From: a virus
Lineage: Duplodnaviria; Heunggongvirae; Uroviricota; Caudoviricetes
Strand: one strand, 5' to 3'
Virus record (IMG/VR): IMGVR_UViG_2547132418_000015
DNA length: 48,662 nucleotides
The notes under the pieces were generated by a model. That model saw nothing but the letters and a program-made list of their open reading frames with translations. It had not been told where the DNA came from and made no database searches. Positions 42,556 through 46,620 of the stretch are shown in pieces (position 1 is the stretch's first letter; every line of letters begins with the position of its first letter). The translations under genes and the position numbers were made by a program.

Positions 42556-43332
42556 TTAAATATTCCCTTTCAGCATGGCTACCGCATCCGCTTCGGGCAT
42601 CTGAAACTGAACTCGATGCCGCGCAGCAACATCAAGTGCGAACACCTTCGTATAGACTTCCGTCGAGCTAATCGATTTGTGGCCCATCAGGCTCTGCAAA
42701 ACCTTCAGTGGTATGCCGGCATACAGCATATGCATCGCGTAGGAGTGGCGGAACGTATGCGGGGTGACCGGCACCGAGAATGTCCCCCCGTCGACGGCGG
42801 CCGCTTCAACCGCTTCGCCAATCCAGGTCCGTACTGTCCGGTCGGTGATGTCCCAGATGCGGGCTTTCTCTGTTCTGCCGGTACGCTTGTTGCGTCTTTC
42901 CAGCGGAATTTTCAGGGTGGCCACCATCATCTGCAGCTGGCTGACGTAGTGGTGATCGGAAAGCGGAACCAGACGATGAGCCTGGCTACCGGCGGGAGCT
43001 CGGCCGGCTGTCCTGGCCGCTTTTTCGGTGCGCTGCTTAAGCGTGGCCAGCTGCACGAACGGATACGGTGGCACCAGCGAAAAATCCCCCCGGGTCAGCG
43101 CCAGCGCCTCGTTGATACGTGCGCCGGTGTTCCAGAGGGTTGCCAGCAGCATCTTGCGGTGCAAATCGGGCACATAATGGAGCAGGGCGCTGACTTCCGG
43201 TGCCAGCAGGTATTTCGGTAGTTCATCTTGAACGAGCGCCATCTGGCGCAGGGCCAGCGCGGCGGGATAGTCAATGGCCACCGGCATTTGCGCCGGCTGC
43301 TGCGGGTGAGAATATGATAAGAGGCCGCTCAT
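42556..43332 (-). CDS. Tyrosine site-specific recombinase, likely plasmid multimer resolvase
   Basis: 258-aa ORF with ...HTFRHSYAMHMLYAGIPLKVLQSLMGHKSISSTEVYTKV... (R-H-R-Y active-site pattern). Confidence 0.85.
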   Translation of the reverse strand: MSGLLSYSHPQQPAQMPVAIDYPAALALRQMALVQDELPKYLLAPEVSALLHYVPDLHRKMLLATLWNTGARINEALALTRGDFSLVPPYPFVQLATLKQRTEKAARTAGRAPAGSQAHRLVPLSDHHYVSQLQMMVATLKIPLERRNKRTGRTEKARIWDITDRTVRTWIGEAVEAAAVDGGTFSVPVTPHTFRHSYAMHMLYAGIPLKVLQSLMGHKSISSTEVYTKVFALDVAARHRVQFQMPEADAVAMLKGNI

Positions 43333-44072
43333 TGGTTTGACATTCCATCAGGTATCACTAATTGATTCCACTCCCTGTTGCGGGTAGCTTCAGCAGCGCG
43401 CAGGGCTCTTTCGCGCCTCCAGACTTTACGAAACACGGAAACTGCAGACCATTCATCATGACCTGTAAGACGTGTTTCGGGCATCCCGGTTGCCTTGCGC
43501 AGACGGACGGCAAGAATGACAGCGTTGATGCCCAAGCGCGTGAACTGATACTGCCGTTCCCTGAAATAGTCCTTATGCCAAGGAGGGTCGGAGTATTCGG
43601 CGGCATATGCAATTGCCCTGTGGGCCTCATCCTGGAGCACCGGCAGTTCACGGATGCGATACATAAGACGTGGCTCTAAAGTCCGCCAGTCACCGGAGAC
43701 ATCGATCAGATTCAGTTCAGGGTAATTCGTGACAGCTTTTCTCTCAGGCTGGGGGGCATCATCATCCTGGCCGTCATCCGTCACAACCCGGAAACAACCC
43801 TCAGCATACCGTTCAAGCATGAATACCAACTCGGTGGCAATGTAATGCAGTTCCTTTTTCATTTTATCTTCTGACGCCTGTCTCTCACGCTTAAGCGTGA
43901 AATAATGTGTCAGCCAGATGCCAGTGAGTGTTATACCCCCAGTAAGCAGGCCAGTGATAAGCCCGGTTGCCACGTTTCCCCAGATCCCCGCCCCTTGATT
44001 AATCAGCTGTACGGAAACCGGATGGGATGTCGCAGCAACTATACTCTCAGTTGCGGCCTGTATATCAGTCAT
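43329..44072 (-). CDS. Hypothetical membrane-anchored protein, stop overlaps the recombinase start
   Basis: 247-aa ORF with N-terminal hydrophobic segment GNVATGLITGLLTGGITLTGIWLTHYF; 4-nt overlap with 42556..43332. Confidence 0.6.
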   Translation of the reverse strand: MTDIQAATESIVAATSHPVSVQLINQGAGIWGNVATGLITGLLTGGITLTGIWLTHYFTLKRERQASEDKMKKELHYIATELVFMLERYAEGCFRVVTDDGQDDDAPQPERKAVTNYPELNLIDVSGDWRTLEPRLMYRIRELPVLQDEAHRAIAYAAEYSDPPWHKDYFRERQYQFTRLGINAVILAVRLRKATGMPETRLTGHDEWSAVSVFRKVWRRERALRAAEATRNREWNQLVIPDGMSNQ

Positions 44073-44122
44073 TGATCATTTACCCCTTTATATTCCTGAG
44101 AAATCCCGCCCTCTGTCCGTAG

Positions 44123-44473
44123 TCAGCGGCCGGCAGCCAGCTCTTCAGCCAGTTTCACAAACCTTTTGTGCTCAGTCTGCAGGTAATGGCTGTAAATCCG
44201 GGCATCACGTTCTGTCAGTCCGGATGGATTGCCGGTGAAGTAACGTTGCAGCACCGCAATACAGTGATTGTAGGTATCGAGATCATATTCCCAGTTTCCC
44301 AGCTCACCGGCCGCATCCAGTTCCTGGCGAAACTGCTCGTATTTACGGAGCAGAATGCCAAGACCTAATTCTGTTGCAGCATAAAGATTATTTTCTCCTG
44401 GCGCGGAAATCGCATTACGGATTTTTTCAAAAGCATAACTGAAATCATTTCTCTCATTGAATGCAGTAAACAT
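44123..44473 (-). CDS. Hypothetical 116-aa protein, first gene of the recombinase operon
   Basis: ORF 50 bp upstream of the membrane-protein gene, same strand. Confidence 0.55.
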   Translation of the reverse strand: MFTAFNERNDFSYAFEKIRNAISAPGENNLYAATELGLGILLRKYEQFRQELDAAGELGNWEYDLDTYNHCIAVLQRYFTGNPSGLTERDARIYSHYLQTEHKRFVKLAEELAAGR

Positions 44474-44549
44474 GTCCTTTCCTCAGTTGAATAGTTAGCC
44501 GTGCAATTTTACCACACCTCAATCATCGTCAGATGAGTGCCACTCTGTC

Positions 44550-44585
44550 GTGACAGTGACTTTCACTAGAGTGATTTTCACATAC
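44550..44585. promoter_or_regulatory. Two short palindromes upstream of the 116-aa gene
   Basis: AGTGA-CTT-TCACT (44555-44567) and GTGA-TTT-TCAC (44571-44581). Confidence 0.4.
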
Positions 44586-44879
44586 TAAAATAATAAGCAG
44601 CCATATAACAACGTAATTAAATTACCTGACGGCCGCTCTGGCCGGATCCGACTTTTATGTTATTCCACAGTTTCCGGAAGTGTACCACGCACACGGAATA
44701 ACCACAGCGCCCTTTCAGGGTGGTGAGCGGCCGGTCACGGGGCAGGGGAGGGACACAACATATATGGTCACTGACAGCTGGAAACACCGCTACATCTTGT
44801 GTTTCCGGGCCGCTGCGCGCCGGCGGGGCTGAATCAGATCCGGAACTGCCTTTTTTCGGATCTGAGCGGGAAAAGTGAG

Positions 44880-45046
44880 AAACCAACATAGGTGTAACAT
44901 ATCCATATGCCGGGCATCTGCATAGGCAAAGCATACGCATATACCTACCATCTGCATATGTAACACCTATACAAGCCGGGCTTGCAGGCATATACTTCAC
45001 CTATGCGGGAATACTCCCTGGCACACTCAGCATATGAGGAAAAACC
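44880..45046. promoter_or_regulatory. Repeat-rich region upstream of vapB
   Basis: Inverted repeat ATAGGTGTAACATAT / ATATGTAACACCTAT; palindromes ATGCCGGGCAT and CAAGCCGGGCTTG; AGGAAAAACC ribosome-binding site before ATG 45047. Confidence 0.4.
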
Positions 45047-45277
45047 ATGCGCACAGTTTCGATATTTAAAAACGGCAATAACCGCGCCATCCGTCTGCCC
45101 CGGGACCTGGATTTTGACGGCGTCAGCGAGCTGGAGATCGTCCGGGAAGGGGACAGCATCATTCTGCGTCCCGTCCGGCCGACCTGGGGCTCGTTCGCGC
45201 AGCTGGACAGGGCCGATCCGGACTTTATGGCGGAGCGTGAGGATGTGGTCAGCGATGAAGGACGTTTTGAGCCATGA
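45047..45277 (+). CDS. vapB: VapB-type antitoxin (AbrB/SpoVT fold)
   Basis: 76-aa MRTVSIFKNGNNRAIRLPRDLDFDGVSELEIVREGDSIILRPV...; stop overlaps the vapC start. Confidence 0.85.
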   Translation: MRTVSIFKNGNNRAIRLPRDLDFDGVSELEIVREGDSIILRPVRPTWGSFAQLDRADPDFMAEREDVVSDEGRFEP

Positions 45278-45690
45278 AGAAAACCTGGATGCTCGATACT
45301 AACATCTGCTCGTTCATCATGCGCGAGCAGCCGGCAGCGGTGCTGAAGCGCCTGGAGCAGGCGGTGCTGCGCGGTGATCGCATCGTGGTCTCGGCCGTGA
45401 CATATGCCGAGATGCGCTTCGGCGCCACCGGCCCGAAGGCCTCGCCGCGCCATATTCAGCTGGTCGACGCGTTCTGCGCGCGCCTCGATGCCGTCCTGCC
45501 CTGGGACCGCGCCGCGGTGGACGCCACGACGGACATCCGGGTGGCGCTGCGCCTAGCCGGGACGCCGATCGGCCCGAATGACACGGCCATTGCCGGGCAC
45601 GCCATCGCGGCGGGCGCCATCCTGGTGACGAACAATGTGAGAGAGTTTGCGCGGGTCCCGGGCCTGGTGCTGGAAGACTGGGTGAAATAA
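45274..45690 (+). CDS. vapC: VapC-type PIN-domain toxin
   Basis: 138-aa MKKTWMLDTNICSFIMREQ... with conserved acidic residues. Confidence 0.85.
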   Translation: MKKTWMLDTNICSFIMREQPAAVLKRLEQAVLRGDRIVVSAVTYAEMRFGATGPKASPRHIQLVDAFCARLDAVLPWDRAAVDATTDIRVALRLAGTPIGPNDTAIAGHAIAAGAILVTNNVREFARVPGLVLEDWVK

Positions 45691-45834
45691 TCCCGTAATA
45701 ATTTCCGTGACGGAGACGACAGACATGAATGGGCTTTGTTGAATAAATCGAACTTTTGCTGAGTTGAAGGATCAGATCACGCATCCTCCCGACTGGATTT
45801 GCCCCTATATTTCCAGACACCTGTTATCACTTAA

Positions 45835-45914
45835 TGGAGTGACCCCGAGCCCGTAGACAAATCTGCCCTATAGTTGGAGTGACCCCGAGCCCGTAGACAA
45901 ATCTGCCCTATAGT
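45835..45914 (+). repeat. Perfect 40-bp tandem duplication between the IS end and orfA
   Basis: TGGAGTGACCCCGAGCCCGTAGACAAATCTGCCCTATAGT at 45835-45874 and again at 45875-45914. Confidence 0.95.
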
Positions 45915-45933
45915 TTGAGCATAGGAGGAGTCT

Positions 45934-46218
45934 ATGGGCACATCACGTTTTACCCCTGAATTTAAGGAAGAGGCCGTCCGCCAGATCACCGAGCGGGGCT
46001 ATTCTATTGCTGAAGTATCTGAACGGCTCGGCGTGTCGGCGCACAGCCTATATAAATGGCTCCGGGCTGTTAAGCCTGACAACAGTGGACAGCAGGCACA
46101 GGATTTACTGGATGCCAGAACAGAAATTCTCAGGCTGAAAGCACAGCTTAAACGCACTGAGGAAGAGCGGGATATTCTGAAAAAGGCAGCGCGGTACTTT
46201 GCAAGGGAGCCCGACTGA
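45934..46218 (+). CDS. IS3-family transposase OrfA
   Basis: 94-aa ORF with helix-turn-helix and leucine-zipper-like C-terminus ending ...DILKKAARYFAREPD; AGGAGG ribosome-binding site. Confidence 0.85.
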   Translation: MGTSRFTPEFKEEAVRQITERGYSIAEVSERLGVSAHSLYKWLRAVKPDNSGQQAQDLLDARTEILRLKAQLKRTEEERDILKKAARYFAREPD

Positions 46219-46265
46219 AGTATCGCTTTATCAACGATCACCGTGAAATCTGGTCGATCGTTACA

Positions 46266-46620
46266 ATGTGTCGGGTCCTTAAGGTTGCCCGTGCCGGATT
46301 TTATGTCTGGCTCCATAACCCTGTATCTGCCGGAGAAAAGGATAACCAGCGACTGCTGGAACTCATCCGCGACTCCTATACGCTGAGTGGTGGAGTTTAC
46401 GGTTATCGCAGGGTTCATGGCGATCTTCGCGAAATTGGCGAAGTGTGCAGCAGAAACCGGGTTGCCAAAATCATGAGGAAAAACAGGATTCAGGCTATAC
46501 ATGGTTATAAAGTGCCACGCGGGAGCCGGGGACGACCGTCACTGATAGCGCCTAATCACGTGCGGCGTGAATTTACTGTAGTGAAGCCCAATCAGGTGTG
46601 GGTCACCGACATCACCTACA
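46266..46620 (+). pseudogene. IS3-family transposase OrfB, N-terminal part, interrupted by a group II intron
   Basis: Ends ...NQVWVTDITY, then the reading frame enters intron sequence beginning GTGTG at 46621. Confidence 0.8.

Follow-up and report, generated by a model that had tools for sequence, protein, structure and literature searches.

The DNA analysed here (the window, 48,662 nucleotides at its full length) contains an ORF-poor interval bounded on its left by a minus-strand gene for a 116-aa protein, the ATG of which is the reverse complement of 44471-44473 according to the ORF list and the sequence, and on its right by vapB. From left to right, the gene order is a tyrosine recombinase gene (-), genes for hypothetical proteins of 247 and 116 aa (-), the gap of 573 bp, vapB and vapC (+), and IS remnants. 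The recombinase is 91% identical to ResD of the F plasmid (223/244), and its alignment displays the HTFRH...Y catalytic motifs. On the other side, VapB possesses an AbrB/SpoVT-type DNA-binding domain (Pfam and NCBIfam) and is encoded immediately downstream of an array of direct repeats. The coordinates of all features are collected in Table 1.

Table 1 Features of the interval and of its neighbouring genes, in window coordinates
Feature	Position	Strand	Description
resD-type tyrosine recombinase gene	42556..43332	-	258 aa; last in leftward operon; Pfam Phage_integrase E = 2.4e-18
Two conserved hypothetical genes upstream of resD	43329..44473	-	same orientation as resD; ORF list
247-aa hypothetical	43329-44072	-	
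116-aa hypothetical	44123-44473	-	
ORF-poor interval	44474-45046		573 bp; between start of 116-aa gene (-) and vapB ATG at 45047
Leader and probable promoter of 116aa-247aa-resD operon	44474..44589	-	promoter predicted
Accessory region of rfsF locus	44590..44835	.	conserved, non-coding; about 250 bp left of core
Invariant accessory block TTAAATTAC	44617-44625		
Invariant accessory block GATCCGAyTTT	44645-44655		
Invariant accessory block TTTCCGGAAGTGTACCACG	44671-44689		
Invariant accessory block ACACAACATATA	44753-44764		paired with TACATCTTGTGT at 44791-44802
127-aa ORF	44617..45000	-	GTG start; judged non-coding
Hairpin CAGATCCG-N14-CGGATCTG	44835-44864		
rfsF core AGATCCGGAA / CTGCCTTT / TTTCGGATCT	44836..44863		28 bp; CTGCCTTT is the 8-bp crossover spacer; exact pattern match
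Purine-rich flank GAGCGGGAAAAGTGAGAAACCAA	44864..44886		right of core; similar G/A-rich stretch in other loci
Direct-repeat array	44887..45005	+	17-bp (34-bp) period; CATATG-like double hexamers; probable VapB/VapBC operator
15-nt inverted repeat ATAGGTGTAACATAT / ATATGTAACACCTAT	44888-44902 / 44956-44970		
Palindrome ATGCCGGGCAT	44907-44917		
Palindrome CAAGCCGGGCTTG	44972-44984		in promoter spacer
Predicted sigma-70 vapBC promoter	44968..44996	+	consensus scan; 17-nt spacer
-35 TATACA	44968-44973	+	
-10 TATACT	44991-44996	+	
vapB Shine-Dalgarno GAGGA	45036-45040	+	
vapB (vagC)	45047-45277	+	76 aa; Pfam MazE_antitoxin E = 4.5e-9; NCBIfam TA_anti_VapB 92.5 bits, cut-off 60
vapC (vagD)	45274-45690	+	138 aa; Pfam PIN; VapC family matches in NCBIfam

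Over 1.7 kb across the interval, the window shares 99.5% identity with pEFER, pTRE-1611 and many plasmids of Klebsiella, Escherichia and Salmonella, and 100% with one E. coli plasmid in RefSeq. In passages of a published account of IncR plasmids, the backbone contains ‘rfsF-resD’ and vagCD, with vagCD ‘next to rfsF’, while in IncR plasmids without vagCD homology ‘ended to rfsF’; those passages name the elements without dissecting the accessory region or the 17-bp array (PMC9412624). The IncR module of pK245, pEFER and pST1023 has the same sequence as the window (99.5-100% identity) and the same gene order, with vagCD directly beside rfsF, and no substantive difference was found. Judged by this sequence likeness, the window around the interval is a plasmid backbone of the IncR type, a common one in resistance plasmids. 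The neighbourhood of rfsF-resD and vagCD in IncR plasmids is already described, and the interval is an ordinary one, most of which is known.

When plasmids and E. coli genomes were searched, the interval proved to be modular. Query positions 1-116 track the operon's particular first gene, homology to the accessory region begins at position 117, with positions 117-390 (44590-44863) present in more than 5000 plasmid records, and positions 391-500 were seen only together with vapBC. A pattern scan with one genome per species yielded 46 further loci, nearly all in Enterobacterales. The rfsF locus was also found in assemblies labelled Haemophilus sputorum, Chryseobacterium, Geobacteraceae, Pseudomonas lundensis, Lachnospiraceae and Clostridiales (L025, L028, L030, L031, L038, L048, L050 and L054), which probably reflect contamination by, or wrong binning of, contigs from enterobacterial plasmids; the gene products of L025 are identical to those of the window. 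Beyond vapBC, two tandem copies of a 40-bp unit, TGGAGTGACCCCGAGCCCGTAGACAAATCTGCCCTATAGT, stand at 45835-45874 and 45875-45914, immediately upstream of an IS3-family orfA (45934); they are preceded by TGGATTTGCCCCTATATTTCCAGACA, which resembles an IS2 end. These repeats (45795-45914) fit the nested delta-IS2/ISEc15 ‘locus A’ of IncR plasmids mentioned in the same passages (PMC9412624).

The two genes upstream of resD are annotated as ‘hypothetical’ in RefSeq relatives, their products match no family in Pfam or NCBIfam, and they fill the slot that ccdAB takes up in both F and the S. Dublin plasmid. Further small genes occupy this pre-resD slot in other plasmids. Because these small genes differ from plasmid to plasmid, the 5’ part of the resD operon is itself modular, and the leader segment (query 1-116) is common only to plasmids with the same first gene, for example L007. 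Reading of the sequence provides a Shine-Dalgarno for the 116-aa gene, GAGGAAAGG (reverse complement of 44476-44484), and a candidate extended -10 for the operon, TGGTAAAAT (reverse complement of 44506-44514); by consensus scans the minus-strand promoter candidates are weak. The operon-specific leader also contains a direct repeat, AGTGACTTTCAC / AGTGATTTTCAC, 15 bp apart at 44555-44581, which is present as a single copy in the related APEC plasmid L007.

In the right half of the interval, the initial annotation had described a long-loop hairpin, which is better described as two 12-nt arms, 92% complementary, with an 8-nt spacer. The published rfsF pattern, AGATCCGNAANNNNNNNNTTNCGGATCT, consists of 10-bp inverted repeats and an 8-bp spacer as the place of exchange, and Xu et al. 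reported that F-derived and Klebsiella virulence plasmids had recombined at a 28-bp site equated with rfsF (PMC8299605). The core pattern AGATCCGNAA-N8-TTNCGGATCT has a single exact match in the window, at 44836-44863, and shuffled sequences give none. Because the match to the published pattern is exact and a ResD 91% identical to that of F is encoded nearby (1.5 kb left of the core), the hairpin is, by sequence, the rfsF core of the adjacent ResD tyrosine recombinase, which the initial annotation overlooked. Across 58 loci, the arms are constant and the spacer is diverse in sequence. Comparable runs rich in G and A are found to the right of the core in F, L004, L013 and L056 despite their unrelated right-hand cargo. 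The core itself has the simple tyrosine-recombinase layout of loxP/Cre and FRT/Flp, with inverted arms of 10-13 bp and an 8-bp spacer (PMC5587640), but the sequences and the recombinase subfamily are unrelated and rfsF has an extra accessory region of about 250 bp. By analogy with F, ResD would bind the two inverted AGATCCG-containing arms and act catalytically at this core, cutting at the edges of the 8-bp spacer and exchanging strands via a Holliday junction. Such an exchange would resolve plasmid dimers to monomers, and may occasionally fuse or swap DNA between different rfsF-bearing replicons.

Comparison with two relatives locates the point of exchange. In the 1000 bp that adjoin the core on its left, identity to the window is 100% for L004 and 99.7% for L056, while right of the core it falls to 25-29%, as between random sequences. 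All three agree up to the second spacer base and separate there (CTGCCTTT in the window, CTTACTTT in L004 and CTCAGGGT in L056), beyond which the window continues into vapBC, L004 into a nucleotidyltransferase and an S-4TM effector, and L056 into pifC. In a spread sample of 60 plasmid matches, 17 alignments ended at query 389-393, which is 44862-44866 in the window, and another 4 stopped at 396-405. As far as alignments can tell, this break in identity inside the 8-bp spacer is the nucleotide-level signature of site-specific exchange, and the comparative data are those that strand exchange in the spacer would leave. DNA right of the core is hypervariable, with 88 protein clusters among 118 ORFs in the right flanks of L004-L059; among this cargo are PifC-like proteins (at 9 loci), GajA-like ATPases (4 of the 68 representatives), NTase with S-4TM and a KAP NTPase, next to metabolic genes and IS elements. 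The idea that the right flank of rfsF is specifically an anti-phage island was examined with PADLOC and Pfam on the 68 representative right-flank proteins and was rejected, as some defence genes, namely those for the four GajA-like ATPases, S-4TM and the KAP NTPase, stand among mostly miscellaneous cargo with no clear enrichment.

Left of the core, the 54 distinct accessory sequences have a median pairwise identity of 61%. Their conservation profile contains invariant or near-invariant blocks outside the search pattern, among them TTAAATTAC, GATCCGA and ACACAACAT, although part of the invariance in this profile was imposed by the pattern used to collect the loci. The block GATCCGA-N20-TTCCGGAAGTGTAC (44645-44685) reuses the inner parts of both core arms, and we infer from this that it may be a second, non-cleaved ResD-binding site. 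The pifC-ccdA intergenic region of F, which contains rfsF and oriV1 (PMC4398462), shares three colinear blocks with the window, the last of which is the core, with identical spacings of 109 and 83 nt. Such colinearity with the F region containing oriV1 could also be taken to mean that 44590-44835 is a vestigial or auxiliary replication origin instead of a recombination accessory. We consider this very unlikely, since in the 58 loci the segment always accompanies the ResD gene and the core, whatever the replicon type, the window's neighbourhood is without PifC/RepC, which is described as the gene that initiates replication of F (PMC4398462), and IncR plasmids, in the passages on their replication, replicate from repB with iterons (PMC9412624). 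On the pattern of conservation, the accessory region would instead serve in resolution.

Beyond the accessory blocks, F and the window share the same 28-bp architecture and arms (AGATCCG...CGGATCT around an 8-bp spacer) and the position of the site upstream of the resD operon. The two differ in the spacer (CTGCCTTT in the window, CTTGGGGT in F), in the start of the operon (two hypothetical genes versus ccdAB) and in the right-hand neighbour (vapBC versus pifC). A third arrangement is provided by the crs/rsd (rsdB) multimer-resolution locus, which adjoins vagCD on the virulence plasmids of Salmonella Dublin and Typhimurium. In the Dublin locus (L009), a leftward operon with the integrase gene last, preceded by two hypothetical genes, ccdB and, first of all, ccdA, is followed on the right by accessory region and core, 17-bp array, vapB and vapC, and the intergenic region is about 72% identical to the window. 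It differs in that the operon begins with ccdAB, the spacer is CCACCAGA, the right arm is AATCGGATCT and the array is about 30 nt longer.

Does the interval encode an RNA? RNAalifold, applied to 40 diverse copies of 44590-44870 on both strands, yielded 10-11 invariant pairs and a covariation term of 0.03, with no compensatory change. Because no pairs covary on either strand, conservation of the accessory region acts at the level of DNA. An Rfam scan of 43500-46500 (E <= 1) returned no family above threshold, its sole match being mir-3912 over 44888-44970 (23 bits versus a gathering score of 95, E = 0.23), which is spurious and due to the inverted repeat. Together with the several inverted repeats of the region and a promoter-like site on the plus strand at 44562-44591, this sub-threshold match is what can be adduced for a regulatory small RNA or structured leader in which the hairpin and the long inverted repeat would form stems. 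However, the 15-nt inverted repeat is not kept in other lineages, the consensus scan detected no intrinsic terminator in the interval, and in the promoter scan the vapBC promoter alone was convincing. An RNA is thus highly improbable, and the small RNA envisaged in the initial annotation found no backing in family, covariation or terminator.

The second candidate for an encoded product is the 127-aa minus-strand ORF or, in its place, a degraded ancestral gene. The frame is open in the window, L005 and L008, and PGAP calls hypothetical proteins here, of 124 aa in NZ_CP100905 and 153 aa in pNORD8. In L007, L009 and L010, however, it is interrupted by in-frame stops. Substitutions at codon positions 1, 2 and 3 number 10, 18 and 13; 28, 29 and 25; 26, 40 and 18; 24, 23 and 17; and 18, 23 and 18 in the comparisons with five homologues: an excess at the third position is absent in all five, the counts being flat or highest at position 2. 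No Pfam or NCBIfam family matches the ORF. It extends over both the rfsF core and the operator array of vapBC, and these two are conserved in the manner of DNA sites. That either a real or a decayed gene is the content of the region is thus the least credible of the readings considered. The earlier judgement that the ORF is spurious is borne out by the flat substitution counts, the stops in 3 of 5 homologues and the lack of a family match, while the degraded gene it allowed for has neither codon periodicity nor a family match in its favour. PGAP also places ‘hypothetical protein’ CDSs over the core and the vapBC operator in L003 (3144-3518, -) and L005 (4028-4489, -), annotated as WP_370602169.1 and WP_072093212.1, one of which overlaps the start of vapB; such calls look like annotation artefacts.

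The right third of the interval probably belongs to vapBC as its control region. Among 18 lineages, the -35, the -10 and their 17-nt spacing are nearly invariant, while the sequence of the spacer is variable; the transcription start sites of both vapBC and resD are putative. Upstream, Tandem Repeats Finder reported a period of 17 at 44904-44960, and autocorrelation peaks were observed at lags of 17, 34 and 51 (z = 4.0, 5.8 and 4.5, respectively). In 18 distinct vapB upstream regions, the promoter hexamers are conserved together with nearly invariant 12-mers (CATATCCATATG, CATCTGCATAkG, CATACGCATAT and CATCTGCATATG), and the patches of 4-7 nt between the 12-mers vary. The array runs into the promoter, yet the invariant 12-mers lie upstream of the -35 here (about -45 to -105); in other lineages, CATATG/CATCTG elements fill the promoter spacer too.

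The motifs singled out in the initial annotation all lie where it placed them. Measured against first-order Markov shuffles, palindromes with 5-nt arms and gaps of 0-2 number 7 versus 1.6 expected (shuffle fraction 0.003), and hairpins with 8-nt arms and gaps of 3-20 number 3 versus 0.16 expected (shuffle fraction 0.01). The 15-nt inverted repeat is present but not perfect, its arms being complementary at 14 of 15 positions (reverse-complemented, the left arm reads ATATGTTACACCTAT). Both this repeat and the two palindromes are sub-features of the array with its 17-bp period. We rejected them as conserved operator units, as the complementary centres are situated either within the promoter spacer or in patches that differ between lineages.

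The distribution of the array follows vapBC. Wherever vapB follows the core at a distance of 160-240 bp to the right (about 20 loci), the array is present, and it is absent from about 24 loci, F included, that have ResD, accessory region and core but other cargo. In four loci (L011, L012, L051 and L052), the array and vapBC are accompanied by the right rfsF arm only, with no adjacent resD. Thus, across 58 related loci, co-occurrence of array and vapBC is perfect, and the array never occurs with ResD alone. The L012 array lacks exactly one 34-bp unit. In these loci (L011 2995-3010, L012 2945-2970, and upstream of vapB in L051/L052), only the right arm TTTTCGGATCT is kept; in place of the left arm, L011 and L012 have ACTTCCG(G/C), which is like CCGGAAGT, an invariant block of the accessory region, in reverse complement, a likeness that hints at recombination with secondary sites.

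Enteric AbrB-type VapBC is known to autoregulate at promoter repeats, as a hetero-octamer on roughly 36 bp (PMC3378870). Because the array is inherited with vapBC, because VapB is of the AbrB type and because of this enteric precedent, we assign the array to vapBC: it is probably the vapBC operator, bound by VapB or VapBC. VapB, as the VapBC complex, would bind the array and thereby autorepress the operon. Salmonella LT2 vapO1/vapO2 likewise combine an AbrB-type VapB upstream of a PIN-domain VapC with promoter repeats (Winther & Gerdes 2012, PMC3378870). The repeat unit of about 34-36 bp in the window fits one VapBC hetero-octamer, as in LT2; however, vapO has two inverted repeats over the -10 and the -35, whereas the window has six or seven elements spaced by 17 bp, mostly upstream of the -35. 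The vapBC operator foreseen in the initial annotation is therefore plausible for the right third (about 44887-45046), as promoter and probable operator, but the left two thirds are rfsF/ResD.

The array could also be viewed as an accessory part of the resolution site (crs), at which ResD or a host factor organises the synapse, in place of a VapB operator or in addition to that role. It starts only about 24 bp from the core's right arm, a distance that is constant in all vapBC-linked loci. Krause and Guiney are said to have described, in 1991, the crs of pSDL2 as made up of eight incomplete direct repeats of 17 bp and a segment with homology to F oriV1; if so, these repeats are presumably the same as those of the window, and that description would assign them to the recombination system. 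Against this stand the roughly 24 loci, F among them, that have no array beside an intact ResD gene, accessory region and core, the four loci in which it accompanies vapBC without resD and with half a core, and its continuation into the conserved vapBC -35/-10. From this distribution, these loci argue that the ResD system can in general do without the 17-bp repeats. We consider a crs role unlikely and retain the assignment of the array to vapBC. More unlikely still is a reading in which VapBC on the array modulates ResD recombination; in connection with it, vapBC, array and right half-site would behave as a cassette exchanged at rfsF, like pifC, NTase/S-4TM or the GajA-like ATPases.

Taken together, the interval is very probably a composite recombination and regulatory region, i.e. 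a ResD/rfsF resolution locus followed by the vapBC promoter-operator, and neither a gene nor an RNA. Its left part (44474-44885), two thirds of its length, is, by its conserved sequence, the resD/rfsF multimer-resolution system and not part of vapBC.

For annotation, a ‘hypothetical protein’ called by a pipeline at this place is an artefact. What is new, in a modest way, is the comparative evidence placing the 17-bp repeats with vapBC and not with the resolution system, which makes the array a concrete operator candidate for a very widespread plasmid module, vagCD/vapBC. Were VapBC on the array in fact an architectural or road-block factor, the status of the toxin-antitoxin pair would be coupled to multimer resolution or cassette capture. 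The rfsF/ResD system keeps low-copy resistance and virulence plasmids monomeric, and it is a documented point of fusion and exchange between replicons, for example in the mobilisation of Klebsiella virulence plasmids. Recognising the rfsF site explains why the backbones of IncR and IncF plasmids are mosaic at exactly this position.
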